A stretch of DNA of 32,000 nt, taken from assembly GCF_000260965.1 (NCBI RefSeq), contig NC_017856.1, positions 1,080,001 through 1,112,000 on the forward strand, in the 5' to 3' direction. Below the pieces are notes generated by a model. It did no database searches, had not been told where the DNA came from, and saw only the letters and a program-made list of their open reading frames with translations. The translations under genes and the position numbers were made by a program. Of the stretch, positions 5,863 to 26,816 are shown one piece after another. Numbering within the stretch: position 1 is the first letter of the stretch; every line of letters begins with the position of its first letter. The DNA comes from Methylophaga frappieri. GTDB lineage: Bacteria > Pseudomonadota > Gammaproteobacteria > Nitrosococcales > Methylophagaceae.

Positions 5863-5880
5863 ATTATTTTTCTGTAAAAA

Positions 5881-5911
5881 GGCCGGTGGTAACTGTCACC
5901 GGCCTTTTTTT
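5881..5911. terminator. Bidirectional rho-independent terminator
   Basis: GGCCGGTG-gtaactgt-CACCGGCC stem, flanked by A5 upstream and T7 downstream. Confidence 0.75.
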
Positions 5912-5970: not shown

Positions 5971-6147
5971 ATGTCAGCTTTATTGATTGGTTTGATTCGA
6001 GGATTATCACTCAGTATTTTATTTTTTCTGACCTTGCTTTTAATTGTTCAGGAATGGATTCAAAAAGGCCAAGCAAAGCGCCATCGTTCCAAACGCACTC
6101 AATCGACTGCGATACAAAAACTCATTAACGCCAGGCTGACTACCTAA
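5971..6147 (+). CDS. Possible 58-aa small membrane protein
   Basis: The ATG is preceded by GGAG at 8 nt. Product: MSALLIGLIRGLSLSILFFLTLLLIVQEW, then a basic tail (KGQAKRHRSKR...). It is below the 60-aa cutoff of the ORF track and has no homology support. Confidence 0.3.
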   Translation: MSALLIGLIRGLSLSILFFLTLLLIVQEWIQKGQAKRHRSKRTQSTAIQKLINARLTT

Positions 6148-7670
6148 AGTTCAGGCGTACTGGCAAACGCCAGTGCACTCTTACCGGTTTGTTTGACTTG
6201 ATACATGGCTTTATCAGCCATTTTCAACAGTTTTTCGACTTCTCCCCCATCCCTTGGGAAACAAGCAACCCCAATACTGGCGCCAATCTGGCAGCGCTGC
6301 TCTTCGATCACAAAAATATCTGATAAGGCACGGATGATCTTGTTGCCAACCAATCGAATACTGGCCTGCGAGGGGACATCATCAAGCAACACGACAAATT
6401 CATCTCCGCCAAAACGGAAAACACTGTCTGCGGCACGCAAGCTACCGGCGAGTCTGGTTGCCACGGCTTTGAGCAAGGCATCACCAATATGGTGCCCATA
6501 GTCATCATTTATGGCCTTAAAATTATCCAGATCAACAAACATAATCGCCACCGATCGCCCTTGTCGCCGCGCCTGCTGCAAGATCTGCGTCGCACGGATA
6601 GTAAACTGCGTCCGATTGGGCAAACTGGTCAAGCTATCAGTATGGGCTTGCTCCGTAAGCGCTTTTTCCAACTGTTTGCGATCTGAAATATCACGAATAT
6701 CCGCACTGATTTCTGTGGAGCGGCCATCCTCACTTCGCGTTACTTGCAGCAGCATTTCGGCATCGATCAGCTCCTCATCCGCACGATGCAATTGCACTTC
6801 ACAACGTTGATAGGGCAACGGTTTATGACGTTTTACTAACAGCAACAGATGGGCAACTTGTGCTTGTGATTGTGGGCTAAACAGCCGGTCAAAACTTTGT
6901 CCGAGATAATAGGACTCATCATGTTGTAATAATCGTTTGACCGAGGAACTGATAAAGGTGATGCGTCTGTTCGCCGCATTAATACCCAGGACAATGTCAG
7001 AACTTTTCTCCATCAGTTTGCCAAAATACTGCTCACGTCGAATCAACCGATAGATCGCCAAGCTGAATGACATCAGAATCAGCATCACGACAATGGTCTG
7101 TAAGCCGCGCAGTTGATAGGTTTGTTGCTTTGCCTGCACTTCAAGATGATTGGTCAAATCATTCATCATGATTAATAATGATCGATTGACGGTCAGCACA
7201 TTGTCTATCACTGCCGAGATTGCTTCTGGCTCCAATGTAACCTTGGCAAGCGAACGCTGCACCGGCATCCATAGCTGAGCCGCATCATTTAAAAGTAATC
7301 TTGCGGCACTTTTTTGTAATGGCTCGATACGGCTGCGTTGACCATCAGCACCCGTTACCTCGCCGCCTTCCAAAAAGCCACGCAGCGTTTCATCAAATAA
7401 GCTGACCGCATTTGTTAAATCTTGATAAACAGCATCATCGCCCCCTTCCCCACGCGCTTGTATCCGCTCGATATGCAGTAGAGATTGGTTGATTTGTTGA
7501 GATAACATGCGTTGCCGTCCGGCAATATTAATATTTAGAGATGATGCTTCAAGCTGTGCCGTAATCGCATAGTTCATGGCCAGCAACAGAATATCCATGA
7601 CCATGACCAAACCCAGCGGTAATAAAAACCGACGGTATTTATAGAGTACTTCCAGTATCGACTCGTTCAT
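6144..7670 (-). CDS. Sensor diguanylate cyclase: TM - PilJ/NarX-type periplasmic module - TM - PAS - GGDEF
   Basis: 508 aa. INIAGRQRMLSQ matches the P-box-like motif of PilJ-N/NarX sensors. There are two TM segments and a PAS region. The active site is RFGGDEF, with an RAAD I-site 5 aa upstream. Confidence 0.9.
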   Translation of the reverse strand: MNESILEVLYKYRRFLLPLGLVMVMDILLLAMNYAITAQLEASSLNINIAGRQRMLSQQINQSLLHIERIQARGEGGDDAVYQDLTNAVSLFDETLRGFLEGGEVTGADGQRSRIEPLQKSAARLLLNDAAQLWMPVQRSLAKVTLEPEAISAVIDNVLTVNRSLLIMMNDLTNHLEVQAKQQTYQLRGLQTIVVMLILMSFSLAIYRLIRREQYFGKLMEKSSDIVLGINAANRRITFISSSVKRLLQHDESYYLGQSFDRLFSPQSQAQVAHLLLLVKRHKPLPYQRCEVQLHRADEELIDAEMLLQVTRSEDGRSTEISADIRDISDRKQLEKALTEQAHTDSLTSLPNRTQFTIRATQILQQARRQGRSVAIMFVDLDNFKAINDDYGHHIGDALLKAVATRLAGSLRAADSVFRFGGDEFVVLLDDVPSQASIRLVGNKIIRALSDIFVIEEQRCQIGASIGVACFPRDGGEVEKLLKMADKAMYQVKQTGKSALAFASTPEL

Positions 7671-7687
7671 CCCTGCCCCAATTGTTG

Positions 7688-8941
7688 CTAATCATCCTGC
7701 CAGTCCAAATCACAACAAAATACAAATAACCGATCATCCACTACCACGGTTTGCGATACCGTAATGCACATGCGCGAATCTGCTACCGATAAATAAGGGC
7801 GGCTCACCTGTATCTGCCCCGGGTTTTCTATCGCGCGAAAATGATAGTGTTTATGTGACCAATTGGCGTTATCTCCTGATATCAAAGGCGTAAAACGTTT
7901 ATCCAGCTGTTGCTGATAAAAAGGCGAATAAATGTTTCGCGCCATTTGGTAACCGGCCTCATCCAGCAGATAGCATCGTACTGCCCGACGCTCCTGAAAA
8001 AGCAGATTACAGCTGATATCAAAGGCATTACTTATGGCAAAGTGGCTGGTCGCCTGACGAAACAAGGTTTCGATTTTTTTAAAATCCTGATTATGCTGAT
8101 AGCTAGCTTTAAAACGCTGAGATCGTTGTTTGGCTAATAAGTCATCGATGGCATCAATATAATCTGCGGCGGGATACAAATCCGGTCTCGGTTTAGCAAA
8201 ATAAAATCCTTGCACCATATCAGCATTGGCGGCTATCGCAATCAGCGCTTCCCGTTCGGATTCAACGCCCTCTATCACTACCAAGCTACCGGCCTCATGA
8301 ATCAAGGAAACGATACCTGTCAAAATCCGCTCCACTCGACTCGAGTGACTGGCACTTTGGATAAGGCTGCGATCTATTTTGACGATATCCGGCTCCAGCT
8401 CCCAAATACGATCAAAATTGGAATGCCCCGCACCAAAATCATCAATCGCAATCAGACACCCCATTTCTCTGAAGTGTGCAATTAGCCACCTGAGATAAAC
8501 GCGATCGTGGATTTCACTCTCCAGAATTTCAATGACCATTCGATGTGCCGGTAATCCAGTTTGTGTAAACAAAGACTGCATAAAGCCGACATCAGGCTGT
8601 TGCTCTACCAGAGACTGTGCATTCAAGTTTAAAAATAACCAGCTTTCATCTTGCACTTGTCTGGCAAAATTGTGCATATGCAAGCGCCGGCAAAGCCTGT
8701 CCAAAGACAGATGCGCTTCGCTGGTTTGTGGCAGATTTAATAACACCGCCGGCGATAACGAATGGCCGCGGCTGTCTCGGCTTCGGATTAGCCCTTCAAA
8801 GCCAACTGGACGACGGTGAGAGACACTTAAGATCGGCTGGAAGTGGCTGACCAACTGTAAGCCCCGATATGTTGCCGCCATATTTAACGGTGTATTCTGA
8901 TTCTGTGAGGTTAACGGTTTGTTTGGTGTGTTAGCTTTCAT
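7688..8941 (-). CDS. EAL-domain c-di-GMP phosphodiesterase with a C-terminal PAS/Cache-like domain (YkuI-like layout)
   Basis: 417 aa. Motifs present: QPI...FEGLIRS (EAL as EGL), LNLN, EILESE, DDFGAGHSNF, KIDRS, EGVES, QGFYF. The C-terminal ~150 aa has a Cache/PAS-like SRPYLSV...ITVS pattern. Confidence 0.85.
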   Translation of the reverse strand: MKANTPNKPLTSQNQNTPLNMAATYRGLQLVSHFQPILSVSHRRPVGFEGLIRSRDSRGHSLSPAVLLNLPQTSEAHLSLDRLCRRLHMHNFARQVQDESWLFLNLNAQSLVEQQPDVGFMQSLFTQTGLPAHRMVIEILESEIHDRVYLRWLIAHFREMGCLIAIDDFGAGHSNFDRIWELEPDIVKIDRSLIQSASHSSRVERILTGIVSLIHEAGSLVVIEGVESEREALIAIAANADMVQGFYFAKPRPDLYPAADYIDAIDDLLAKQRSQRFKASYQHNQDFKKIETLFRQATSHFAISNAFDISCNLLFQERRAVRCYLLDEAGYQMARNIYSPFYQQQLDKRFTPLISGDNANWSHKHYHFRAIENPGQIQVSRPYLSVADSRMCITVSQTVVVDDRLFVFCCDLDWQDD

Positions 8942-8955
8942 GATATCAGCCTTGC

Positions 8956-10899
8956 TTAGACGCCAGCGTTGGTCAACGACATTGGTTGACGCATCTGCAG
9001 CTGCGAACAGCTTAAGTTGATGGGCATCCCTTTAACTAATCCACTCGACGCTGCGGTCGATGTCATCTGGCCGACTTCTGACGCGAGAGCATGACGGTGT
9101 TCAACAAACCAGTTATCAAACATTTCAACTTGCTCCGCATCCAGCGCTACTGAGGTGGCACTTGCCACAGTCAGCCACAAGTACAACAGCAGTAAATTAC
9201 TCAAAACCAGAAGCAGACTGAAAGTCCGCCAAAAGGCCAGCGGGTTACGCTCTAACAGTGGTGGCCGCTCTTCATGTAGATAACTCGGGTTCGGTTTTTT
9301 GATATCGGCTTCAAACTCAGACAATGCCTCATAACGCCGTTCTGGGTTCATTGCCACAGTGCGCCGAATCGCTTTATCCACCCAATGTGGAATATCGCCT
9401 TGATACTCACTAAGTGACTGATACTGCAATCGGTTTAGTTGCTGTGGATGGCGGATTTTGGCGTAGGCCTCACCGAAGGGCAACCGATTGCTCAAAAGCT
9501 GATAAACCAATATCCCCAAAGAAAACTGATCGGATTGTGGACTGCCTGGTTCACCCCGCAAATACTCGGGCGCCGAGTAGTGTCTAGTACCAAGCAATGC
9601 TTGTCGCTCCACCGGCGAAACAATATCAGCGATACCGGCAATTTTTGTTGAACCAAAATCGATTATCTTTAACACACCATCATCCGTCATCAAAATATTT
9701 GCTGGCTTAATATCCTGATGCAGCATGTCCAGCCGATGAAAAGCGCGTAACCCGGAAATAATCTGTGGCAATATCTGACGGACTGTCTGTAAACTCAGGC
9801 TGCCCTCATCATCCAGCCACTGCTCCAGTGTTCTGCCCTCAACATACTCGAGAACGTAATACAAAAATCGGCGCGGGCGTTGCTGCTCAATGACACGAAC
9901 CACATGCGCATGATCGATGCGTCGGCCAATCCATTCTTCCAGTTGAAAGCGCTCCAGATAAGCCGGGTCATCTTCAAAGTTAACAGACGGTGTTTTCAAC
10001 ACTACTTTATTGCCGTTATCCGTGTCTATCGCCAAATAGAGTTGACTGGTGGAACTGGCATGCAGCGTTTTAATGACACGGTAGCCATCAAGAATCACAC
10101 CTTCATATAATTCTGGTGGAAATGGCAAGGCAGTAAGGCGGGCAAACGCTTCATCAGCATCCGGCTGGGGCACTTGCGTGACTTCAACCAACTGACAGCT
10201 GAGATTATCATCGCTGCCTCGCGCTAATGCCTGTTGGCAGATATGTTCCGCCAACTCCTGTAGATCGGCTTTCTCTGACAATAAATGCTTTAATTCCGCA
10301 TCGCTCAACCATTCATGCACACCATCTGTCAGCAATACGAAACAATCACCAGCCTCAATTGGTAACGATTTGTAGTCAATATCCAACGCATAATCGACGC
10401 CTAAAGCACGTCCCAGATATGCGCGCTCATCACTAATCCGAATACGGTGATCGGCCGTGAGTTGCTCCAGAGACTGGCCTCGCAACAAGTAAATTCGAGC
10501 ATCGCCAACGTGGAATAGATGCGCAGTACTGGATTTCAGAATAAGCCCGGAAAACGTCGTTGCCCAACCGCGGCTGCTGTCGCGAAAATGCTGGCCCTGG
10601 CCACACAGCCAGACATTAATTGCGGTCAAAACTTTGCCACCAGACTGCTTTACCGACCAGCTATCCGGTGTGCTGAAATAGTCTTCAACAAAACCGGTTA
10701 TCGCCGCGTGGCTGGCCTGCCTGGCACGTTCACTACTACTGATACCATCAGCTAATGCACAAACAATGCCTTTACTTTCCAGCATGACCGGGTTGTCTGG
10801 TACCAGACAACCCAGCGCATCCTGATTTTCTGCTTTCGCACCGGCCAGTGATTGCTGACCGTATCTGACAGCAAGTGCAACCAATTCCTTATGCCTCAA
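8956..10899 (-). CDS. Bifunctional PP2C phosphatase / Ser-Thr protein kinase, C-terminally membrane anchored
   Basis: 647 aa. PP2C motifs: [26 protein letters not shown]. Kinase motifs: [25 protein letters not shown] helix ([17 protein letters not shown]) is followed by a ~75-aa tail. The TTG start overlaps the nasA stop. Confidence 0.85.
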
Positions 10900-12362
10900 T
10901 GAACATCAATCATCTGTACTGTACCATCAGGAAGTACTTCCGCCATTTGGCCACGTGGCTCATCCATGAATTGCACCACAAACAGCGTTACAATTGCGGT
11001 GGCCGCAATAACCCAGAAAAACGTTTGTGCAGAGACCACTGATAGCACGGTCAAGAACAAAACCGCACCGACATTGCCATAAGCCCCAGCCATGCCAGCG
11101 ATCTGCCCAGTTAAACGACGTTGCACAAGCGGGACAACTGCGAAGACGGCGCCTTCACCCGCCTGAACAAGAAACGAACACATCATCGTTGCCAATACCG
11201 CTAATACCAGAAACCACTCCGGCGTAATCAAGCCCATGACAAAGTAGCCAAAGGCTAAACCGCTCAGACAAATAGTCAACGTCCGTTTACGGCCCAGTTT
11301 GTCACTGAAGTAGCCCCCTGTTGGTCGAGAGACCAGATTCATAAACGCAAAACCAGAGGCCAACAAACCCGCCTGAACCGGGCTGATATTAAAGGTATCA
11401 CTGAAAAATAGTGGCAGCATTGAAACCACCGCCAGCTCAGATCCGAATGTAGCCAGATAAGCCAGGTTCAATACGGCAACCTGTTTAAATTTATATTGAT
11501 GAATTTGCGGCACCGGCGTGTGAAAAATGGTCTTATTGACTTGCCAAATATGATAAATCTGATAGGCAAACAGTAACGCCAGCACGACATATACCGCTTG
11601 GGTAATAGGTGCCGATAACAGTGAGACACCGGCTGGCGATAATTTCCAGGCGAGCAACGCCAGCGCACCGTACAACGGCATACTCATGACAATGTACAAA
11701 AAGAAATCCAGTTTACTGGTCACTTCCATCGCACCCGATTTTTTGGGTTTGAAATAAGTTGAGCCTTTCGGCGTGTCCGAGACGCTGTTGTAATAGATAA
11801 ACGCATAGACAAGCGCCATCGCACCGGTGGTCGCCAAAGCGTAGCGCCAACCATTTTCACCACCGAACAACAAGGCTAGTGTCGGTAGGGTCATCGCCGC
11901 CGCGGCAGAGCCAAAATTACCCCAACCACCGTAAATTCCCTCAGCAAGCCCAACCTGTTTTGCCGGGAACCACTCTGAAATCATGCGAATCCCGATAACG
12001 AATCCGGCACCGACAAAACCGAGTAAAAAACGGGCCAGCGCCATTTGTTCAAAACTGTCGGCAATGGCAAAAAAGAAACACAACACACTGGAAATACCCA
12101 ATAACAGGGTGTACATGATTTTGGGGCCGTATTTATCGACTAGCATACCGACGACAATTCGTGCCGGTATGGTGAGCGCGACGTTCAAAATCAACAAGGT
12201 TTTTAACTGTTGATCCGTCAGCCCCAATGCCTCTCGAATCGACACCAGTAATGGCGCGTGATTAAACCAAACAACAAACGTGATGAAAAAAGCGATCCAG
12301 GTGAGGTGTAAAATACGACTGTTACCGCTAAAAGATAAAAGCTTAAGTTTAGATGCTGACAT
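10896..12362 (-). CDS. nasA: MFS nitrate/nitrite transporter (NarK/NasA type)
   Basis: About 488 aa and 12-TM MFS, with NNP-family glycine-rich motifs ([15 protein letters not shown]). The ATG at 12362 lies behind a purine-rich AAAGAGAGAG. The gene sits in a nitrate-assimilation context. Confidence 0.9.
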
Positions 12363-12406
12363 GACTCTCTCTTTCACAGATTTACCAAAATCGGTTTTGT
12401 CACTTA

Positions 12407-12422
12407 AGCGGGAATCATGCCA
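12407..12422 (-). promoter_or_regulatory. sigma54 promoter of the nasA operon (TGGCATGattcCCGCT)
   Basis: GG-N10-GC spacing is correct. Flanks and spacing match the nirB promoter. The predicted leader is about 35 nt. Confidence 0.65.
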
Positions 12423-12427
12423 ACACT

Positions 12428-12440
12428 TAACACCTTGATT
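12428..12440 (-). promoter_or_regulatory. IHF-like site (AATCAAggtgTTA)
   Basis: Full match to WATCAANNNNTTR, 5 nt upstream of TGGCATG. The same element occupies the same position at nirB. Confidence 0.4.
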
Positions 12441-12505
12441 TTATTAACATTTAAAAATATAAAACAGGCATGTAATGCACTTGTTTAAAGCAATAGTCAA
12501 TCATT

Positions 12506-12522
12506 CGCACCAGCGTGATGCA
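12506..12522. promoter_or_regulatory. NtrC-like enhancer dyad (CGCACCagcgtGATGCA)
   Basis: 10/12 match to TGCACC-N5-GGTGCA. Its centre is 93.5 bp upstream of the GG of the nasA -24 element. Confidence 0.5.
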
Positions 12523-12523
12523 C

Positions 12524-12549
12524 AAAAAACAAGGCCTACGTTGCCATTG
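12524..12549 (-). terminator. Hairpin plus T6: nasT terminator or a regulated leader terminator
   Basis: Minus strand: CAA(T)GGC-aacgtag-GCCTTG followed by TTTTTT. The stem is modest (6 bp with one bulge). Confidence 0.4.
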
Positions 12550-12611
12550 AGACAGCATTACAGCCCACAATAAGTTGCCAGATCTGGTGAACTTTGCGCT
12601 CCGTGTTAGCT

Positions 12612-12627
12612 TGCATTCAGCATGCCA
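12612..12627 (-). promoter_or_regulatory. Additional sigma54-like element (TGGCATGctgaATGCA), 25 nt after the nasT stop
   Basis: Near-consensus -24/-12 with correct spacing, but no NtrC-like dyad at the 93-bp position. Confidence 0.4.
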
Positions 12628-12651
12628 TTTTGACAATCACGACTCTTCGTT

Positions 12652-13272
12652 TTACAAAACGGAGGTGGCATTTTCCAAGTGGTTAGCACCGGTCAACACC
12701 TGTTGTGCCAGCATGGCTAGTCGCATATTTTTGTTCATCGCCGTAGTGCGCAGTAATCGGTATGCTTCATCCTCACTACACTGGCGCTGCTGCATCAGCA
12801 AGCCTTTTGCGCGGTCAATGATTTTGCGATCTGCCAGACGTGTCTGTAAGTCTTGCAATTCACCGAGCATTCTTTGCTGATGCTGAAAACGACTGCGCGC
12901 CATCGACAATACAGGCACAATCCGATGCGGCTGCAAGCCGTCAACCACAAATGCGCTGACCCCGGCTTGAATAGCTTGTTGTTGCAGCACCGCATCATAA
13001 GTCTGGGTAAAAATAACAACCGGTAGTGGATGTTGCTTGAGCAACGTTGAGATCAAGGTAATTAAATCAGCGCTCAGTGCTTCACAGACAATCAATAACA
13101 TGACCGGCCGATCAACCACTTCTGCGGCAGCAACCTGTGACAAGCTGTTGGCTTGGTAGCTCACCGCGTAAGGTGTTTGATACAACGCATTTTCAACGAT
13201 TGCCGTTAGTTTTGGCGCATCACTGATGAGTATCGTGCGCAACGGTGCGCCAGTATCAGGTAAGTTTTGCAT
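12652..13272 (-). CDS. nasT: ANTAR-domain antiterminator with a pseudo-receiver domain (NasT/AmiR family)
   Basis: 206 aa. The C-terminal ANTAR signature is DRKIIDRAKGLLMQQRQCSEDEAYRLLRTTAMNKNMRL. The N-terminal REC-like fold has CE where the phospho-accepting Asp is expected (MLLIVCEAL). Confidence 0.85.
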   Translation of the reverse strand: MQNLPDTGAPLRTILISDAPKLTAIVENALYQTPYAVSYQANSLSQVAAAEVVDRPVMLLIVCEALSADLITLISTLLKQHPLPVVIFTQTYDAVLQQQAIQAGVSAFVVDGLQPHRIVPVLSMARSRFQHQQRMLGELQDLQTRLADRKIIDRAKGLLMQQRQCSEDEAYRLLRTTAMNKNMRLAMLAQQVLTGANHLENATSVL

Positions 13273-13426
13273 TCCTCAGGAATCCCAGCTCAACAGAAGT
13301 GCCGCTGCCAAACCAAGCGGCGAAATTAATACTAACAACGACAGCCTAAATAATTCCCGGCACAGGAAGTATCCATCGACTATATAGCCCATTTTTGGCC
13401 CTCCTCGTAGTCACCGAGATTATTAA

Positions 13427-13442
13427 AGCATAAGGCATGCCA
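13427..13442 (-). promoter_or_regulatory. sigma54 promoter of nasT (TGGCATGcctTATGCT)
   Basis: GG-N10-GC spacing is correct, with the same TGGCATG -24 box as nasA and nirB. The predicted leader is about 145 nt. Confidence 0.6.
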
Positions 13443-13578: not shown

Positions 13579-14820
13579 TCAGAATTTAACCATGCCATAC
13601 AACCAGATTTTTTCGGTATCAACGCGTGAGGCAAACGTCTTATCAGCACGATAATCCGCATATTTGAGACCAATGGTATAGTGACTGGCAATCGTTTTTT
13701 CGAGCAAGACATTCAGCTCATTACCGGCATCAAGACTGGCAAAATCCGTTTCAAAATCATGGTAGACCATCACTAACTTGGCGCCTAAAACTGACCCAGC
13801 CAATGTCACATAGGTATCTTTCAGCCCTTGAACCGGCGTAGTCAGGAATTGATCTGCCCAGCCTTGAAAAGCATGGTTTGTGCCCAGCGGCGTGGTAAAG
13901 CTAAACTGTCCATCACCTTGTTGTACCTCATGCGACAGTTTGACCAACCATCCTTGATATTTACCTCCCAATTCTGCCAGTCCATAGTTTTGTCTGGCCA
14001 TATTGCCACCGCGAAACCCGTCCTGCGAGGCATACTCCAGTGTATAAACCAGCGACAATGACTCTGACAATGGTCTGCTGCCACTGAGACGCACCCCGAG
14101 GGTTTTTGATGAGCGTGACTCAACATCCTGATAGTCCAAAAAATAGCCATATCCCTCCAGTTTGGCCACTGACCATCCTGTGTATTGCAGGTTGATTAAA
14201 TGACCGTGTAAATCAATATTGCCATTTTTTGTGATGCCGCCATCAAAATCCTCACCGTTGATAGTATTGACGTTATGAATATAACCATAATGTAGTGTTG
14301 TGTCTGGCAGACTGGTGTTTTGCAAAGTGAACGCATCAAATGTCTGATGATTTTGTCGCCACAGTACATTTCCCACGAAGCGATGAAACGGGGCGTCACG
14401 GTAAGTGATATTCTGACGACCATATTTAAAGAGCGTCTCCATGGCCTGAAAACTCACATAGCCTTGATTAAGCTCCGTTCCATCTGGATCCGCAATGACT
14501 GAGTAGCCAGTCTTTCCATTGCTGGTACTGTTAAATTGTTCACCACCAATATGACTGACATCTTCCAGTTCCAGATAGGCTGCAAAGCCTTTGAATTGGG
14601 CGGTTTGATACCCTAATGTAGTTCGGAGAGTAAAGGCATCAGCTTGTTCCAGCGTATTATCCTGATCAACCGACTCGTATCTGGCACGCGCTGAAAAATT
14701 GAATTTTCCAGTAGTCAGTGCCTCTAAAAATGTGGTTTCCGCCTGAACTGGCGCGATCAGAAAACTACTGCCTGAGAGAATCAGGGCACCGAATAAATGT
14801 CTCAATAAAGAAGATGACAT
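13579..14820 (-). CDS. Outer-membrane beta-barrel porin (OprD / alginate-export-like), possibly an anion channel
   Basis: The ATG at 14820 lies behind AAGGAA and gives a signal peptide ending PVQA-ETT. It has an ARARYESVDQDN-type N-terminal strand, alternating beta-strand patterns, and a C-terminal ...YGMVKF. Confidence 0.7.
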   Translation of the reverse strand: MSSSLLRHLFGALILSGSSFLIAPVQAETTFLEALTTGKFNFSARARYESVDQDNTLEQADAFTLRTTLGYQTAQFKGFAAYLELEDVSHIGGEQFNSTSNGKTGYSVIADPDGTELNQGYVSFQAMETLFKYGRQNITYRDAPFHRFVGNVLWRQNHQTFDAFTLQNTSLPDTTLHYGYIHNVNTINGEDFDGGITKNGNIDLHGHLINLQYTGWSVAKLEGYGYFLDYQDVESRSSKTLGVRLSGSRPLSESLSLVYTLEYASQDGFRGGNMARQNYGLAELGGKYQGWLVKLSHEVQQGDGQFSFTTPLGTNHAFQGWADQFLTTPVQGLKDTYVTLAGSVLGAKLVMVYHDFETDFASLDAGNELNVLLEKTIASHYTIGLKYADYRADKTFASRVDTEKIWLYGMVKF

Positions 14821-14957
14821 GCGCTTTTCCTTTACATACAAAAAAGCCATGCTTTAACGACTATAAAGCATGGCATCATTACCATTATTTTCCAGCGACT
14901 TTGCTAAAACTTGCGTTGCCAACGACCTTGCTGGCTCTGACCAGGCGTCAGTTCTGT

Positions 14958-17628: not shown

Positions 17629-17940
17629 TTACAAGGCGACGAAGACGACGCCGTTTTCGATTTTGGTATCAAAATGATGTGTGCAGCCTTCATCGGGTCC
17701 GGTGGCTTCACCATTTTCAAGATCAATAACCCAGTTATGCAGTGGACAAGCTACCCGCTTACCGAAAACAATACCTTGCGACAACGGCCCTTTTTTATGG
17801 GGACAAGTGTCAAAAAGTGCAAAAACTTCGTCGTTACTGGTGCGAAATACCGCAACATCTCCGGAATTGGCACGGATAACGCGTGAACCCTTCTGTGGAA
17901 TATCGGCCAATAGACCGACTTCAAGCCATTGTGTGTCCAT
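17629..17940 (-). CDS. nirD: Nitrite reductase small subunit (Rieske-fold NirD)
   Basis: 103 aa with CPHKKGPLSQG...CPLHNW. Its ATG overlaps the nirB stop (TAATG). Confidence 0.9.
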   Translation of the reverse strand: MDTQWLEVGLLADIPQKGSRVIRANSGDVAVFRTSNDEVFALFDTCPHKKGPLSQGIVFGKRVACPLHNWVIDLENGEATGPDEGCTHHFDTKIENGVVFVAL

Positions 17941-20372
17941 TAACTTACCTGTTTGATTGGAATATATTTCTGAGGCTGTTTAGCCGCTTCTTCTGCCCAG
18001 GGATCGTTCTGTGCATTTTTCTGTGAGTCGTAAAAACGCTGAGCAAGTTGTTTGCGGTTAGCTTCATCATCAACCACTTGTGCCTGAACGCTTTTCAGAC
18101 CCACGCGTTCAATCCAAGGTGCGGTACGCTCCAGATAATGTCCATCCTCGCGATACAGCTGCATGAACGCTGCACAATATTCCATGGCCTCTTCTTCTGT
18201 TTTCACCTTGCAGAGAAAGTCTGTCGCCCGAACTTTGATGCCACCGTTGCCACCAACATGCAGCTCGTAGCCAGAGTCCACACAGACAATGCCAAAGTCT
18301 TTAATAGTTGCTTCGGCACAATTCCGTGGACACCCAGATACCGCAATTTTAAATTTGTGTGGTGTCCAACTGCCCCAGGTCATTTTTTCAACCTTGATGC
18401 CGAGTCCGGTCGAATCCTGTGTACCAAAACGGCACCATTCACTGCCCACACAGGTCTTAACGGTACGCAGCGATTTGCCATAAGCATGGCCGGAAACAAA
18501 ACCAGCCTGGCTCAGGTCGGACCACATTTTGGGCAAGTCATCTTTCTTAACACCCAATAAATCAATCCTCTGACCACCGGTAATCTTGACGGTCGGCACC
18601 TGGTATTTTTCAGAAATATCGGCAATCGCACGTAATTCGCCCGGATTGGTCACGCCGCCCCAAATACGTGGCACAACGGAATAGGTGCCATCTTTTTGAA
18701 TATTGGCGTGCACTCGTTCATTAATAAACCGAGATTGCTGATCATCAACGTATTCATTTGGCCAACTACTGAGCAGGTAGTAATTGAGCGCAGGCCGACA
18801 GGAGTGACAACCATCTGGCTGTTGCCATTCCAAAGCCGTCATCACATCTGGAATTGTCTTGAGATTTTGCGCTTTGATTGCTGCCTTGACTTCATTGTGA
18901 CTCAGGTGAGTACAGCCACACATCGCCTTTTTACTCGGTGTTTCATTAAAATCACTGCCCAGCGTCGATGCCAGTAACTGCTCTACCAGACCAGTACATG
19001 AGCCACATGAGGCAGCCGCTTTGGTTTGGGCCTTCACTTCATCAAGCGTAAACAGATTGTTTTTGGTAATGGCCTGAACAATATCGCCTTTGCATACCCC
19101 ATTACAGCCGCAAATTTCGGCATTATCGGGTAAGCCATCTACCGAGTTACTGGCGCCATGACCAGAATCACCCATGTGATGTTGACCAAACAACATGGTT
19201 TCGCGCAACTCGGAAACATCGGTGCCATCCCGCATCAATTGAAAATACCAGGCACCATCCACGGTATCGCCATACAGTACGGAACCAATCAACTGATCTT
19301 TTTTAATCACCAGTTTTTTATAAACGTTTCTTGCCGCATCTTTAAAAATCAAATCTTCGCTGTCTTCATCACCTTGGAAGTCACCGGCAGAAAACAAGTC
19401 AATGCCCGTCACTTTTAACTTGGTTGAGGTGACCATGCTCATGTAACGGGCGATACCCATTTGAGCCAGATGGTTAGCACAGACCTTGGCTTGCTCAAAC
19501 AAGGGGGCAACCAGACCAAAAGTATCCCCACGATGCTGCACGCACTCACCAACGGCATAGATGCGCGGGTCAAATGTTTGCATGGTGTCATCAACCACAA
19601 TGCCCCGCTCGCAATGAATACCCGCAGACTGTGCCAGGCTGATACTGGGACGAATGCCGACGGCCATGACCACCAGATCGGTATCAATATGACTGCCATC
19701 TTTAAAAACCAGCCTTTCGACACGATCAGTCCCTTCAATGGCAGCAGATGCATGGCCCATCAGAAAGTTCAGGCCTTTATCAGTCAGTTGCGCCTGCATC
19801 ATGTCAGATGCGGTCTGATCCAATTGCTGGTTCATCAACGTGTTGCTGATATGCACCACGGAGACATCCATCCCTTGAATCATCAGACCGTTTGCCGCCT
19901 CAAGTCCAAGTAATCCACCACCGATCACAACCGCTTTTTTATGGGTTTTGGCCGTTTCGATCATGGTATCGACGTCGGCGATATCACGGAAACTAATCAC
20001 GCCGGGGAGATCTGCGCCCGGCAGGGGTAACATAAATGGACGAGAGCCCGTAGCTAATAACAATCGATCATATTCCACAATCAAACCGTCATCGGTGATG
20101 ACGCGTCGCTTCATTCGATCAATTTTGGTCACCCGCTGCCCGCTATACAGGGTGACGTTATTATCTTCATACCATTGCAAATCATTAATCATGATCTCAT
20201 CAATGGTTTTTTCACCAGCCAAAACCGGCGACAACATGATTCGGTTGTAATTACCATAAGGCTCATCACCGAATACCGTAATTTGATACCTATCCGGGGC
20301 CAGCTTGAGTAGTTCTTCAAGCGTGCGCATCCCGGCCATGCCATTGCCTATCAGCACCAGTTTTTCTTTCAT
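17940..20372 (-). CDS. nirB: NAD(P)H-dependent assimilatory nitrite reductase large subunit
   Basis: 810 aa. It has an FAD/NAD Rossmann N-terminus (LVLIGNGMAG), a BFD-like 2Fe-2S segment (CGCNGVCKG...CGSC), and a sirohaem/4Fe-4S domain (CVGSEWCRFG...SGCPRNCAE). A GGAG RBS lies 7 nt upstream. Confidence 0.95.
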   Translation of the reverse strand: MKEKLVLIGNGMAGMRTLEELLKLAPDRYQITVFGDEPYGNYNRIMLSPVLAGEKTIDEIMINDLQWYEDNNVTLYSGQRVTKIDRMKRRVITDDGLIVEYDRLLLATGSRPFMLPLPGADLPGVISFRDIADVDTMIETAKTHKKAVVIGGGLLGLEAANGLMIQGMDVSVVHISNTLMNQQLDQTASDMMQAQLTDKGLNFLMGHASAAIEGTDRVERLVFKDGSHIDTDLVVMAVGIRPSISLAQSAGIHCERGIVVDDTMQTFDPRIYAVGECVQHRGDTFGLVAPLFEQAKVCANHLAQMGIARYMSMVTSTKLKVTGIDLFSAGDFQGDEDSEDLIFKDAARNVYKKLVIKKDQLIGSVLYGDTVDGAWYFQLMRDGTDVSELRETMLFGQHHMGDSGHGASNSVDGLPDNAEICGCNGVCKGDIVQAITKNNLFTLDEVKAQTKAAASCGSCTGLVEQLLASTLGSDFNETPSKKAMCGCTHLSHNEVKAAIKAQNLKTIPDVMTALEWQQPDGCHSCRPALNYYLLSSWPNEYVDDQQSRFINERVHANIQKDGTYSVVPRIWGGVTNPGELRAIADISEKYQVPTVKITGGQRIDLLGVKKDDLPKMWSDLSQAGFVSGHAYGKSLRTVKTCVGSEWCRFGTQDSTGLGIKVEKMTWGSWTPHKFKIAVSGCPRNCAEATIKDFGIVCVDSGYELHVGGNGGIKVRATDFLCKVKTEEEAMEYCAAFMQLYREDGHYLERTAPWIERVGLKSVQAQVVDDEANRKQLAQRFYDSQKNAQNDPWAEEAAKQPQKYIPIKQVS

Positions 20373-20416: not shown

Positions 20417-20432
20417 TGCAGGCTTCATGCCA
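20417..20432 (-). promoter_or_regulatory. sigma54 promoter of nirBD-nasC (TGGCATGaagcCTGCA)
   Basis: Near-consensus -24/-12 with correct GG-N10-GC spacing. The predicted leader is about 35 nt. Confidence 0.7.
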
Positions 20433-23104: not shown

Positions 23105-24135
23105 CCGAAAAAGACCCTTATTTTGAGGCACGCCAGACATCACAAAGCCGAACATCAGCGACCGCACCTGCCGATTTTTTCAAACCTCGTGCTGAACAAC
23201 AAATCGGTTTGCCAGAGTCGGTCGATATGGATGAGGATCTATTCGAACTGCCTGAGCCAGTTGCCGGCGAGACTTCGTATTTCAAGGCCTGGACACTCAG
23301 TCTCGCCAGCGTTTTTTTGGTATGGATTGGTTACGATCTGTATCAATTTATGCAGCAGCTAATCCAGCAGAATCCTATATTAGCCGTCGGTTTTGGCCTG
23401 TTACTGCTTCTTCTGCTCACACTGAGCTTGCATCAAATCTGGATCAGCTGGCGCAACCGCCGGCAACGGAAACGTATCGACAAATTGCGCCATCAAGCTG
23501 AAACCATGCGTGACGATTTCAGCCAGCGTCAGGCCAAACCGTGGTTAGCTGAATTATCTACATTGTATGCGGGCACCCAGCATGCTGCTTCCATACAGAG
23601 AATCCAGACAACATTGCCGGATTATCTTCACGATAGCGAAGTGATAGACACGGTTGACCAGCAATTTTTTCAACAGCTCGACAAACAGGCAATGCGATTG
23701 ATTCAGCAAGAAAGTGTCAACAGTGCAGTATTAGTCGCCGTCAGCCAACTGGCGATTATTGATACCTTACTGGTTGTCTGGAAAACGCTGAAGATGGTGA
23801 ATCGCATTAATCTCATCTATGGTGCCAAGCTAGGCAAACTGGCTCGCTGGCGAATGAATCTGCAAATTTGCAAAGTCGCCCTTGTTTCCTACGGTACTCA
23901 GGCTGGCTTGACCTTAATGGCGGAAAAAACCAGTCTTGGGTTGAGTGGCAAACTGGTTGGCAGTGTTGCCCAAGGAATCGGCGTCGGCTTATATCAGGCG
24001 CGTATTGGGATGAGCGCGATGCAGCAGATAAGGCCGATACCTTTTGCAGAAAACGCATTGCCCAAAAACCGCTTCCTGGCCAATATCGCGCAAAGTTGTC
24101 TCTCTAGGTTACGGCGTCAAGCGCCTGAGGCTTGA
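23101..24135 (+). CDS. ycjF: YcjF-family (UPF0283/DUF697) inner-membrane protein
   Basis: 344 aa with two central TM helices and the usual pairing with ycjX. Confidence 0.8.
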   Translation: MTEKDPYFEARQTSQSRTSATAPADFFKPRAEQQIGLPESVDMDEDLFELPEPVAGETSYFKAWTLSLASVFLVWIGYDLYQFMQQLIQQNPILAVGFGLLLLLLLTLSLHQIWISWRNRRQRKRIDKLRHQAETMRDDFSQRQAKPWLAELSTLYAGTQHAASIQRIQTTLPDYLHDSEVIDTVDQQFFQQLDKQAMRLIQQESVNSAVLVAVSQLAIIDTLLVVWKTLKMVNRINLIYGAKLGKLARWRMNLQICKVALVSYGTQAGLTLMAEKTSLGLSGKLVGSVAQGIGVGLYQARIGMSAMQQIRPIPFAENALPKNRFLANIAQSCLSRLRRQAPEA

Positions 24136-26816
24136 TACAGGCTCGCACCATTTCTGCCAGCGGCTTTAACATCATACAACGCCATATCCGCTTGTTTTAA
24201 ATAATGCGTCATTGCATCGTCGACCGTTGGAATTCCAGCGGTGACACCAATACTTAAGGTTACTTGAACAGCCGTGCCGTCTTCTAATTCTATGGGCTCC
24301 GATACCGATGCGACCAGGTTTTGTGCAACATGTAAGGCAGCATCTGGTGAAGACACCTCATGCAAGACAACCACAAACTCATCGCCTCCCAATCGGGCTA
24401 ACGTGTCGCTTGCCCGCAAAGTGTTGGACATCTTCTCCGCGACCACCTGAATGATCAAATCGCCGGCATCATGGCCATAGTTATCATTAATTGACTTAAA
24501 GTAATCAATATCCACAAACATCAAGGCCAGCACTTGTTTATTGCGCCTTGCCTGTTGAATCGCCATACCAAAATGCTCTTCGTACAAGCGTCGGTTTGGC
24601 AGCCCGGTTAGTGCATCATAAAACGCCATTTTGCGAATATGTGCTTCTTCTTGTTTTCGGGTGGTGATATCTTCAACTTGGGAAACAAAATGTAACACCC
24701 CACCTTGCTCATCATGGACAACAGACACACTGAGCAAAACGTCAATAATTTCGCCCCCCCGACAGAAATAACGCTTTTCAATGTGATAGTGATCTAACTC
24801 TTTATCAAGCAATTTCCTGACAAAATGCTGATCTAAGTCGAGATCCTCAGGATGAGTAATATCCATAAAGGTCAACGCCATCAATTCTGCTTCGGTATAA
24901 CCAAGCATATCGCACAATGCGGGGTTCACCTCCAGCCAGCGGCCTTCAATACTAACCAGTGCCATACCAATCGCTGCCGTATCAAAGGCATTTCGAAACC
25001 GCTCCTCACTTTGACGCAAAGCCAATTCGGTGTCCTTACGCCAGCTGATATCACTGTTTGTCCCAACGGCACGTAATGGCTCGCCATGTTCATCACGTTC
25101 AATCACAATCCCTTTGGCTAAAATCCACTTCCAGCTACCATCACGGCATTTAATACGATGTTCATTCCGATACGCCGGCTGACTGCCATCAAACAAAGCG
25201 GTCAGATCTTTTTGCACTTGAGGCAAGTCATCCGGATGAATGCGGTCTGCCCATTCACTGAAATGCGGGGTAAAATCGTCCGGTGAATAGCCCAGCATCG
25301 TCACCAGTCTTTCTGAATAAATGACACTGTCATCCGTTAACGTCCAATCCCAAACCCCTTCCCCACTCCCTTCAAGTGCAAACTTCCATCGCGCTTCAGT
25401 CTGCTCCAGACGAGATTGGTAAAACCATCTATCTGTAATATCAAAACTGACCCCAACCATACCGGTTGGTTGGCCTGAGTGATTAAATCTCATAACAGCA
25501 TTCAGCTGAATCATGCGTGAGTTGTAGGCATCCAGCTGGAACAGCAATTCAATATTCAAATCAACGCGGTTGTTAATGACATAGTCGATCTCCTGCTCCA
25601 GCCGCGCTCTATCCTGCTCATCAAAAAGGGCGCACCAATCTTGAAATAAGATCTGATGACTTCGGGTACGTTGTAATCCCATCAGCTTTGCCAGATTGCC
25701 ATCCAGCCACATCCTATCTGTCTCAAAATCCCAGTCCCAAATGCCCATTTTGGCGGTTTCGGTTGCCAGCGATAACCGCTGGTTTTGCTCACGAAGTTGC
25801 GCGGTCATATTATTTGCCAGCTTTTCTGCCCGCAACTTACCATTAATCAACAGCCAACTGATGGCCATCAATGCCACAGTAAACAGTAACTCCAATACCA
25901 ACCGAATAATTGGCCAGTTGGTCAGATACTGTGCTCTAAAGGCCATATCGGGTTGGGCAGAAAATTGCCATTGCCGACCGGCAAGCACACTGGTCTCAGT
26001 CAATTGCCAATGATCATCAAAGTCGCCCGTATCAAATAACACATCCCCATTGAGCGGGCTGATATCATTGATTTGTAATCGCGTTAATGAAGGAAAATGC
26101 GCAAGTGTGGCCCGAATAATATCTTCGATGCGAAATACCACATAAACCCAACCGGTATGTTCTCGTTTAGATGCACTGACGGAATCATTGAGTAGACCCA
26201 CATTTTTAAATGTCGGTAGATACATCAACAAACCGGTGACAGACTCACCGGGCAAATCCTGAACCAGTTTAACCCCACCCGACATTGCCGTCGTTAAGGT
26301 ATCGCGTGCTCGCCACATCGCCTCACTTCTCACCGAATTTGAGGCCATGTCATAGCCGAAGGCACGCAAATTTCTCTCTTTAAAAGGTTCGAGATAAATA
26401 ATACTGGAGTATATTTCTCGCTCACCTTCAGGGTAGATTTTGTAATCTGGAAACCCTTGTTTGCGGATCATCGCCTCATGTTCGACGCGCGCTTCTGGTA
26501 GAACCAACTGGCTATATCCCAACCCTAACAATCCGGGGTAAATGGTCTCCAATTGCAGTTTGTCAGCAAACACTTTGAACTCATTACGTGACACATAGTA
26601 ACTTGCTTGAAAAAGCCCTTGAGTCGCCCTCAGCATCTGATCATAGGAGTTGACTTTGTCTGAGATAACCAAGGTAACTTGCTGAAAGATAGTATCAAAA
26701 CGACTTTTGAGCGCGGTTTCAGCTTGAGATTGATTCTGATGGAATTGATTGATGCTGAAAAAGACACCCATGACGAGAATCACTAACGGGATGAATTTGA
26801 ACGCGCGTTCTCTCAT
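24117..26816 (-). CDS. Sensor diguanylate cyclase: TM-CHASE-TM-PAS x3-GGDEF
   Basis: 899 aa. CHASE hallmarks: YLEPFKERNLRAFGYDM, ARDT. There are three PAS/PAC repeats. The active site is RLGGDEF with an RASD I-site. No EAL domain is present. Confidence 0.9.
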   Translation of the reverse strand: MRERAFKFIPLVILVMGVFFSINQFHQNQSQAETALKSRFDTIFQQVTLVISDKVNSYDQMLRATQGLFQASYYVSRNEFKVFADKLQLETIYPGLLGLGYSQLVLPEARVEHEAMIRKQGFPDYKIYPEGEREIYSSIIYLEPFKERNLRAFGYDMASNSVRSEAMWRARDTLTTAMSGGVKLVQDLPGESVTGLLMYLPTFKNVGLLNDSVSASKREHTGWVYVVFRIEDIIRATLAHFPSLTRLQINDISPLNGDVLFDTGDFDDHWQLTETSVLAGRQWQFSAQPDMAFRAQYLTNWPIIRLVLELLFTVALMAISWLLINGKLRAEKLANNMTAQLREQNQRLSLATETAKMGIWDWDFETDRMWLDGNLAKLMGLQRTRSHQILFQDWCALFDEQDRARLEQEIDYVINNRVDLNIELLFQLDAYNSRMIQLNAVMRFNHSGQPTGMVGVSFDITDRWFYQSRLEQTEARWKFALEGSGEGVWDWTLTDDSVIYSERLVTMLGYSPDDFTPHFSEWADRIHPDDLPQVQKDLTALFDGSQPAYRNEHRIKCRDGSWKWILAKGIVIERDEHGEPLRAVGTNSDISWRKDTELALRQSEERFRNAFDTAAIGMALVSIEGRWLEVNPALCDMLGYTEAELMALTFMDITHPEDLDLDQHFVRKLLDKELDHYHIEKRYFCRGGEIIDVLLSVSVVHDEQGGVLHFVSQVEDITTRKQEEAHIRKMAFYDALTGLPNRRLYEEHFGMAIQQARRNKQVLALMFVDIDYFKSINDNYGHDAGDLIIQVVAEKMSNTLRASDTLARLGGDEFVVVLHEVSSPDAALHVAQNLVASVSEPIELEDGTAVQVTLSIGVTAGIPTVDDAMTHYLKQADMALYDVKAAGRNGASLYQASGA

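Follow-up and report, generated by a model that had tools for sequence, protein, structure and literature searches.

Within the assimilatory nitrate cluster of Methylophaga frappieri JAM7, which lies complete on the minus strand of the window analysed here (the whole 32,000-nucleotide (nt) stretch from position 1,080,001 to 1,112,000 of contig NC_017856.1), a gene for a predicted nitrate-sensing diguanylate cyclase (PilJ-PAS-GGDEF; 6144-7670) directly follows one for a YkuI-type EAL phosphodiesterase (7688-8941), and we lean, with caution, towards the view that the two form a nitrogen-limitation-induced, nitrate-gated cyclic di-GMP (c-di-GMP) module inside that cluster. Coordinates are those of the window, and features lie on its minus strand unless stated. 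The pair stands behind nasA (10896-12362), which encodes a NarK-family nitrate/nitrite transporter of the major facilitator superfamily (TIGR00886, 336 bits against a cut-off of 312), and a gene for a PP2C/Hanks-type Ser-Thr kinase with a C-terminal membrane anchor (8956-10884; PP2C_2 and Pkinase). Deposited JAM7 records match the cyclase, EAL and kinase proteins with 100% identity, the EAL protein being Q7C_1060; an exact-protein look-up returned no entry for the cyclase. A sequence-only reading of the window had described these four minus-strand genes as tightly packed, with which the open reading frames (ORFs) and the Pfam and NCBIfam domains agree, and its gaps of 14 nt between kinase and EAL and of 17 nt between EAL and cyclase are both exact. 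The overlap that it reported between nasA and the kinase exists only for the longest kinase ORF, from TTG 10899; homologues and the deposited annotation start at TTG 10884, the likely start behind an AAGGA ribosome-binding site, so that the spacer is 11 nt. For nasA itself the start is most likely ATG 12362 (the longest ORF begins at GTG 12377), giving a protein of 488 aa, like the NasA of relatives, and 87% identical to that of an unclassified Methylophaga (locus L001).

A diguanylate cyclase with a predicted nitrate sensor

The cyclase runs from a first transmembrane (TM) helix through a predicted periplasmic PilJ domain (7224-7565, residues 36-149), a second TM helix and a PAS domain (6681-7016, Pfam) to a GGDEF domain (6177-6647, 163 bits), with hydrophobic stretches on both sides of the sensor. 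Of the PilJ, NIT and NarX families that had been considered for this sensor, profile assignment selects PilJ, above the gathering score (37.1 bits against a cut-off of 26.6, PF13675). The sensor contains INIAGRQRMLSQ (7497-7532, residues 47-58), a predicted nitrate-binding site that fits exactly the N-box pattern [IVL]-[ND]-x-A-G-x-Q-R-M-L-[ST]-Q, which Martin-Mora et al. derived from the nitrate-bound structure of the McpN PilJ domain; its key Arg, R54, corresponds to McpN R61, the residue that hydrogen-bonds nitrate (PMC6381276). The motif had been read from the sequence as the counterpart of the NarX/NarQ P-box with the Arg retained, and while the call of a nitrate sensor is supported and the Arg is present, the exact match is to the McpN N-box. 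Likewise, the suggestion that the protein reads external nitrate or nitrite gains support from the N-box for nitrate but not for nitrite, since McpN binds nitrate and not nitrite (PMC6381276) and the motif therefore does not imply nitrite sensing.

Structural comparison pointed in the same direction at the level of the family. A profile built from 20 sensor domains of this cyclase family and searched against the PDB gave the McpN ligand-binding domain (6GCV) as the best solved structure (E 4.8e-8), followed by PilJ (7ZJR, 8WDF), and aligned the N-box of the cyclase with INVAGAQRMLSQ of 6GCV, whereas a single-sequence phmmer search of the sensor against the PDB returned no match. An AlphaFold2 (AF2) model of the sensor has four long helices with a short beta-hairpin insert at a predicted local distance difference test (pLDDT) score of 90. 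The cyclase shares with McpN of Pseudomonas aeruginosa (PA2788; 6GCV; PMC6381276) a PilJ domain, here a predicted periplasmic one, flanked by TM helices on both sides, the N-box consensus including the nitrate-bonding Arg and a tie to nitrogen or nitrate starvation; it differs in its output (PAS-GGDEF here, methyl-accepting chemotaxis protein (MCP) signalling in McpN) and in its low identity outside the N-box, and nitrate binding is established for McpN and only predicted for JAM7. With NarX and NarQ (3EZH, 6XYN) it has in common a predicted four-helix periplasmic sensor of the kind in which a conserved Arg at the dimer interface binds one anion, and NarQ is among the fold matches of the sensor model (rank 24). 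These proteins, however, have a histidine-kinase output, serve respiratory rather than assimilatory regulation and also bind nitrite, and neither phmmer nor the family profile against the PDB found a sequence-level match between them and the JAM7 sensor.

The motifs of the protein are largely conserved in its relatives. The N-box pattern is matched without deviation by 79 of the 97 listed homologues for which a PilJ domain is precomputed (P0001-P0114 and P0119), and in four others that were checked (P0012, P0014, P0061 and P0084) the sole difference is an A-to-S change. This change, INISGRQRMLSQ, is seen in Methylophaga sp. OBS3 (P0012) and a few others. The GGDEF and RxxD motifs are retained in all but four listed homologues; M. 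lonarensis-type cyclases (P0036/P0038) have SGDEF or AGDEF and lack the RxxD I-site. In JAM7 the I-site and active site are read as RAAD-SVFRF-GGDEF (RAAD-x5-GGDEF, 6396-6437, residues 412-425), and both motifs are intact, consistent with a predicted diguanylate cyclase. Because the 941 N-box proteins already noted in 2019 include diguanylate cyclases (PMC6381276), the PilJ-GGDEF combination is a predicted but uncharacterised one.

A YkuI-type EAL protein that recurs beside predicted nitrate sensors

The partner of the cyclase combines an EAL domain (8189-8857, Pfam 167 bits) with a cytoplasmic, Cache-like YkuI_C domain (7703-8164) that is assigned by homology to YkuI. The Pfam match to YkuI_C is weak (E 0.029), and phmmer aligns residues 30-408 with YkuI (2BAS) at E 1.7e-22, while the top Foldseek matches of the AF2 model are 2BAS and 2W27 with TM-scores of 0.73-0.77 over about 408 columns. 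Within the Cache superfamily, YkuI_C is classed as a cytoplasmic member (PMC4822843). The protein therefore shares architecture and full-length fold with YkuI of Bacillus subtilis (2BAS, 2W27), but identity is only 22-24%, and the gammaproteobacterial clade has its own His/Cys-rich C-terminal motifs and a genomic association with nitrate sensors. The catalytic residues E49, R53, N105, E138, E141, D167, D168, K188, E224, E227 and Q244 are invariant in 20 sequences; all but E227 make up the catalytic set E-R-N-E-E-D-D-K-E-Q reportedly defined in studies of RocR and TBD1265. The earlier description of an intact EAL phosphodiesterase beside an intact GGDEF cyclase agrees with the presence of catalytic motifs in both.

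The C-terminal domain of the EAL protein is strongly conserved within the clade in motifs that YkuI does not share (NWSHKHYHYRA, SRPYLSVADSRMCITVSQ and VFCCDLDW). In alignment A1 the YkuI_C residues W361, H363, H365, H367, C392, C409, C410 and W414 are invariant or nearly so, and B. subtilis YkuI is without them. The His, Cys and Trp residues hint at a metal or cofactor site.

A scan of the genome collection with the EAL alignment, which used generic patterns (AIDDFGAG, PDIVKIDR) and so sampled YkuI-type and other EALs broadly, with part of Methylophaga among them, revealed similar company elsewhere. Among the matches listed, two Pseudomonas loci (L006, L007) carry an EAL protein 61-62% identical to that of the window directly after MCP-signal and NIT-domain proteins (7763-11188 in L007), Vreelandella utahensis (L027) has EAL-MCP-NIT at 9902-13193, and a Cellvibrionaceae metagenome-assembled genome (MAG; L043, 5935-16342) holds nasT, a divergent N-box PilJ protein with the identical INIAGRQRMLSQ, an MCP, an NIT-like protein, a YkuI-type EAL, nrtABC and a porin. 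Given these contexts, a YkuI-type EAL in a nitrate cluster is not peculiar to Methylophaga, and they suggest a general tie between nitrate sensing and the YkuI-type EAL clade.

Gene order in relatives and the origin of the JAM7 layout

Comparison with related loci revealed a conserved association and a changed order. Unclassified Methylophaga (L001/L002) have nasC-porin-small ORF-NIT-nasT-nrtABC-EAL-cyclase-nasA-kinase, a layout shared by M. muralis (L087) and M. lonarensis (L088) and, without the NIT gene, by a MAG (L089); a more distant lineage (L092) keeps the core of this layout with four unrelated genes between cyclase and nasA. Methylophaga sp. OBS3 (L086) has NIT-like-nasT-82-aa ORF-EAL-cyclase with no nas structural genes, its NIT-like protein being 39% identical to the M. 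muralis NIT protein (E 4e-63). The EAL-cyclase pair occurs alone in L003/L004, L093 and L008, and more distant N-box cyclases with no EAL partner occur in L005, L090 and L091. The linkage of the pair to nas/nrt genes thus extends across at least three architectures and five lineages. The JAM7 order nasT-nasA-kinase-EAL-cyclase, by contrast, was found in no other locus among those seen, so that a neighbourhood search for nasA followed by kinase, EAL and GGDEF shows that order to be specific to JAM7, whereas the EAL-cyclase pair and its links to nas/nrt genes and to NtrC/sigma54 elements are conserved.

The spacers indicate how the JAM7 order arose. The nasA-proximal 145 nt of the window are homologous to the cyclase-to-nasA spacer of relatives, and the 130 nt next to nasT preserve the nasT-to-nrtA leader as a decayed copy, from which it follows that JAM7 lost nrtABC and NIT and that the pair now lies downstream of the kinase. 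Judged by these homologies, the JAM7 order is a derived one, in which the pair moved there from upstream of nasA. The other junction lies in the kinase gene, where a JAM7-specific C-terminal extension of 70 codons (8959-9168) marks the rearrangement: the kinases of relatives stop earlier, 2-3 residues past the TM helix, and beyond about 9170 there is no similarity to relatives. An origin of this tail from nrtD or from the nrtD-EAL spacer of relatives was considered and rejected, as no similarity was found. The gap between kinase and EAL is as short as 14 nt because the JAM7 kinase ORF continues for 70 codons beyond the stop of its relatives, and on this comparison the tight junction is a by-product of rearrangement and not evidence of selected coupling.

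The kinase itself belongs to a family of about 574 aa named "bifunctional protein-serine/threonine kinase/phosphatase", with listed homologues of 570-579 aa except for three of 540-541 aa and one of 586 aa. Its PP2C_2 domain spans residues 21-226 and its Pkinase domain 281-525 (Pfam), and the translation contains the kinase Lys (VLK), HxDxKxxN, DFG and SAPE motifs as well as the metal-binding Asp motifs of PP2C, including SDDNLS. The nasA-kinase pair is conserved in every nas-linked Methylophaga locus seen, and it resembles the Pseudomonas nasA-PA1782-type pairs in that a Ser/Thr kinase gene directly follows one for a NarK-type transporter, PA1782 being adjacent to nasA. As for PA1782 itself, it is mentioned solely as the third Ser/Thr kinase that P. 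aeruginosa has, and as an uncharacterised one (PMC8560001), and no function for PA1782-type kinases was found in the literature searched. Phospho-regulation of the NasA transporter by the kinase might conceivably occur.

In several relatives a stand-alone NIT protein is translationally coupled to nasT (L001 3502-4368, L087 3572-4438, L088 2172-3035, L086 6732-7586). Its gene sits where Pseudomonas has NasS and is absent from the window and from L089, and with nasT it looks like a split, NasR-like nitrate sensor/antiterminator pair.

Predicted nitrogen control and co-transcription

Upstream of nasA, pattern matching and conservation identify a sigma54-type promoter, TTGGCATGATTCCCGCTT (12406-12423), that is near-invariant in five Methylophaga nasA upstream regions, where one -12 position and two spacer positions vary. 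An NtrC-like enhancer site, TGCATCACGCTGGTGCG (12506-12522), lies 100 nt upstream of it, and TGCAYC-N5-GGTGCG is conserved in four of the five aligned Methylophaga sequences (in L088 the 3' half reads TGGTTCA). A GCAC-N7-GTGC site 100-123 nt from a GG-N10-GC element is the classic NtrC-enhancer/sigma54 arrangement of Ntr promoters. It is found upstream of nasA in the JAM7 window and L092, upstream of EAL in L003, L008 and L093, and after nasT in L086; such an NtrC-like/sigma54 promoter is thus present wherever the EAL-cyclase pair was seen without nrtABC directly upstream. These conserved elements support a predicted NtrC/sigma54 control of the nasA unit under nitrogen limitation, as the sequence-only reading had proposed. 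That reading had placed the element at 12407-12422 and called it the only promoter, and although the element is real it is not the sole one, given a second sigma54-like match, TGGCATGCTGAATGCA (12612-12627), in the old nasT-nrtA leader. Across the window the sigma54 pattern occurs five times against 2.1 expected, and four of the five matches fall between genes on the minus strand, ahead of nirB, the nasT unit and nasA.

At the other end, a bidirectional intrinsic terminator, AAAAAAAGGCCGGTG-ACAGTT-ACCACCGGCCTTTTT (5876-5911), forms a 13-bp GC-rich hairpin flanked by A- and T-runs and confirms the terminator claimed at 5881-5911. The suggestion of a single transcription unit without internal signals is likewise in keeping with the counts inside the four genes, where 11 promoter-like sites stand against 11.9 expected from shuffles and 13 terminator-like sites, all weak stems, against 8.7 ± 2.9. 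Neither a promoter-like nor a terminator-like site beyond the chance level of shuffles was found at the three junctions, and the kinase tail contains no sigma54 element. Co-transcription of nasA, kinase, EAL and cyclase is therefore plausible. A 58-aa single-TM ORF on the plus strand (5971-6147) converges with the cyclase gene, with a stop overlap of 4 nt, and L086 has a 58-aa gene call at the equivalent position; before reaching the terminator, the cyclase transcript would be antisense to the JAM7 ORF.

The region between nasA and nasT (12652-13272; a REC-ANTAR antiterminator, ANTAR 78 bits, with PDB 6WSH and 1S8N matched over the full length) retains a remnant of the ancestral nasT-nrtA leader (12523-12627), recognised by alignment with TGGCATATTnnCTGCA and GGC-AACGUA-GCC of relatives. 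Their nrtA leader has two A-x-x-G-x-x hexaloop hairpins with covarying stems (CAAUCC/GGAUUG versus GACCC/GGGUU), the second being GGC-AACGUA-GCC followed by a U-rich tract, and by their form these hairpins are an ANTAR-target signature. In the JAM7 remnant the first hairpin is degenerate, and the second has become a terminator-like hairpin with a heptaloop, CAAUGGC-AACGUAG-GCCUUG followed by U6 (12523-12549), so that the nasA unit no longer shows the leader expected of a NasT/ANTAR target. Because this leader is degenerate and lies upstream of the nasA-proximal promoter, the genes from nasA to the cyclase are probably under NtrC/sigma54 control without NasT. Shuffled sequences fold as well as the whole nasT-nasA leader does (z = +0.64); Rfam found nothing in the whole window at gathering thresholds, and relaxing the limit to E 1 for the stretch from nasA to the porin brought up no more than a chance small RNA match.

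ANTAR-type A..G.. hexaloop hairpins do occur in the window ahead of the gene for a porin-like outer-membrane protein (13579-14850; its L087 orthologue matches Alginate_exp), in the nasC-porin spacer at 14870-14935. They read GCCAGC-AAGGUC-GUUGGC and UUUUAGC-AAAGUC-GCUGGAA, and like hairpins with other stems are present in the nasC-porin spacers of relatives (L089 2729-2923, L087 1740-1924, L001 1500-1684), which suggests control of the porin-like gene by NasT antitermination. The nrtD-EAL spacer of relatives (L001 8551-8665, L087 8557-8688) contains a 14-bp hairpin, AUCACACCUGCCCA-AUU-UGGGCAGGUGUGAU, followed by AUUU, a possible attenuator that would separate the c-di-GMP pair from the transporter genes.

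Proposed mechanism and competing explanations

Drawing on sequence and conservation, we propose that under nitrogen limitation NtrC bound at 12506-12522 would activate the sigma54 promoter at 12406-12423 and yield a single transcript of nasA, kinase, EAL and cyclase that would end at the hairpin at 5876-5911. The homology to McpN suggests that the N-box of the inner-membrane cyclase, and above all R54, would hold nitrate at the dimer interface of the periplasmic four-helix PilJ domain, and that the signal would pass via TM2 and PAS to a GGDEF domain with an intact GGDEF motif and product-inhibition I-site. The soluble YkuI-type EAL protein may degrade c-di-GMP, counteracting the cyclase, or serve as a trigger enzyme, governed by its cytoplasmic Cache-like domain. 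Through these steps the pair would turn the combination of nitrogen starvation and outside nitrate into a c-di-GMP level. The sequences show the gene content, the motifs and homologies and the conserved linkage and promoter elements; co-transcription, nitrate binding, enzyme activity, the sign of the response and the target are what we infer for this module. The default output expected would be attachment or motility, which would fit JAM7, as this strain was isolated from a nitrate-fed denitrifying biofilm reactor.

Several observations weigh against this module. Foldseek on the sensor model returned only generic four-helix-bundle sensors at E > 0.01, with 6GCV outside the top 50. The pair lies away from nas genes in three sequence-distinct loci (L003/L004, L008, L093), and the more distant N-box cyclases of L005, L090 and L091 stand alone; near these, L091 has no relevant nitrate genes, and L090 is about 6 kb from glnA-ntrBC, not adjacent to it. 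Since its junctions stem from a recent rearrangement, membership of the JAM7 operon need not reflect long selection. Moreover, B. subtilis YkuI is said (Minasov et al. 2009) to bind c-di-GMP without phosphodiesterase activity in vitro, and intact EAL residues are thus no guarantee of turnover. A rival reading is adjacency without function, in which the pair would have landed behind the kinase by rearrangement, has its own expression and senses something other than nitrate. The junction is indeed recent and JAM7-specific, the pair lies away from nas genes in other genomes, and PA4520's NIT domain failed to bind nitrate (PMC6381276), so that names of sensor domains are not proof of a ligand. Yet the nas/nrt linkage across architectures and lineages, the exact N-box match, the NtrC/sigma54 elements ahead of the pair even where it is unlinked from nas, and the lack of any promoter-like site in the kinase tail all speak against mere adjacency, and we regard it as very improbable.

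A different doubt concerns the EAL protein, which may be a c-di-GMP sensor or trigger rather than a working phosphodiesterase, its state set by the Cache-like domain or by a partner such as NIT, MCP or the cyclase, making the pair a cyclase-plus-receptor unit. The YkuI architecture, the extremely conserved C-terminal domain with its family-specific His and Cys residues, and the close relatives that are paired with NIT and MCP-signal proteins and not with a cyclase would suit such a role, as would the reported inactivity of YkuI in vitro. Degenerate receptor-type EALs, however, usually lose several catalytic residues, and here all of them are invariant in 20 sequences, so that a receptor-type EAL seems doubtful to us.

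The remaining alternative accepts the pair as an active source of c-di-GMP and changes its target: the c-di-GMP may act on the neighbouring NasT and tune antitermination of nas, nrt and porin genes rather than lifestyle. In P. putida, c-di-GMP binds NasT and inhibits leader-RNA (NasT-NalA) binding, and three cyclases interact with NasT (WspR, PP_2557 and PP_4405 being those involved), a published link that would offer a direct target next door and that the sequence-only reading had overlooked (PMC10783516). Beyond this precedent, the ancestral layout has the pair transcribed behind a nasT-proximal leader with covarying ANTAR-type hairpins, L086 retains just NIT-nasT-EAL-cyclase, and ANTAR-type hairpins precede the porin gene. 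Because the NIT partner of NasT was lost, the N-box cyclase is also the only nitrate sensor left in the JAM7 cluster. We know of no description of WspR, PP_2557 or PP_4405 as part of a Pseudomonas nas cluster. The JAM7 cluster resembles the NasS-NasT and NasR systems and that of P. putida (PMC10783516) in having a REC-ANTAR NasT beside nas genes, ANTAR-type hexaloop hairpins in the leaders of relatives and upstream of the porin gene, and, with P. putida, a conceptual tie between c-di-GMP and nitrate assimilation; it differs from NasS-NasT in that the window has no NasS, relatives using the stand-alone NIT protein and JAM7 having neither.

Residue conservation does not favour NasT as the target. 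Numbering was transferred through the proxy P0381, which shares Q72, Q93, D123, R133, Q136 and R140 with the published residues and is the closest stand-in, as the true P. putida NasT is absent among 150 representatives. Of the five binding residues (R70, Q72, D123, K127, R140), JAM7 NasT keeps R140 only, the other four not being conserved (K70, H72, Q123, L127), whereas the M. muralis-type NasT keeps R70, Q72 and R140 and has R127, but Q123. Only Pseudomonas NasT bound c-di-GMP, and the other four residues are not conserved outside Pseudomonas (PMC10783516). The nasA-proximal promoter of JAM7, too, leaves no room for a NasT-controlled leader. We therefore find action through NasT in JAM7 rather unlikely and return to the nitrate-gated module, with attachment or motility as its default output, as the reading that we prefer. 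A wider proposal, which we put forward tentatively and think unlikely to hold as a whole, is that marine Gammaproteobacteria carry c-di-GMP circuits in their nitrate clusters that act locally via NasT, the transporter/kinase or the porin.

Neighbouring genes of the cluster

The remaining genes complete the assimilatory cluster. By Pfam and NCBIfam these are nirB (17940-20372), with a sigma54 element ahead of it found by pattern match (20417-20432), nirD (17629-17940, 103 aa) and nasC (14958 to about 17610). The nirD gene overlaps the nirB stop by one base and also overlaps the 5' end of the longest nasC ORF, and for the latter reason the nasC start is probably near 17610 and not at 17726. At the head of the nasT unit a small ORF (13276-13392) encodes a 38-aa membrane peptide, MGYIVDGYFLCRELFRLSLLVLISPLGLAAALLLSWDS, directly upstream of nasT and preceded by a GGAGG site and by a sigma54 element (13427-13442); L001, L087, L088 and L089 conserve the ORF as well as the element. 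A second cyclase gene (24117-26816) encodes a CHASE-PAS-PAS-GGDEF protein of 899 aa and is syntenic with Methylophaga sp. OBS3 (L086 142-2889).

Implications

Fusions of sensors to cyclases are widespread, and cyclases with an N-box PilJ domain had been predicted in 2019; what appears new here is that an N-box cyclase/YkuI-EAL pair is conserved within nitrate-assimilation clusters, behind predicted Ntr promoters, and the genomic contexts further suggest a broader link of YkuI-type EALs with nitrate sensors. The literature searched gave no paper on the nas-EAL-GGDEF layout, in line with the sequence-only reading, which knew of no described operon of this kind, and no experimentally characterised N-box cyclase. 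To our knowledge, coupling of nutrient sensing to c-di-GMP is known for few signals only, and we know of no diguanylate cyclase shown to bind nitrate.

The arrangement suggests that nitrate supply is wired directly to second-messenger signalling, and it makes the cluster a compact, testable case in which a predicted nitrate-binding cyclase and its partner EAL stand under predicted nitrogen-starvation control with NasT next door. If the tie between EAL and nitrate is true, it would give the YkuI_C domain a first physiological context. Were the local circuits real, c-di-GMP would be a direct nitrate-gated regulator of nitrogen assimilation and not a lifestyle switch alone, and the parts of such circuits would be an N-box cyclase or N-box/NIT sensors together with a YkuI-type EAL that has an unrecognised His/Cys-rich cytoplasmic sensor domain. 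Given the origin of JAM7 in a nitrate-fed denitrifying biofilm, a link from nitrate through c-di-GMP to attachment would matter for reactor biofilms.

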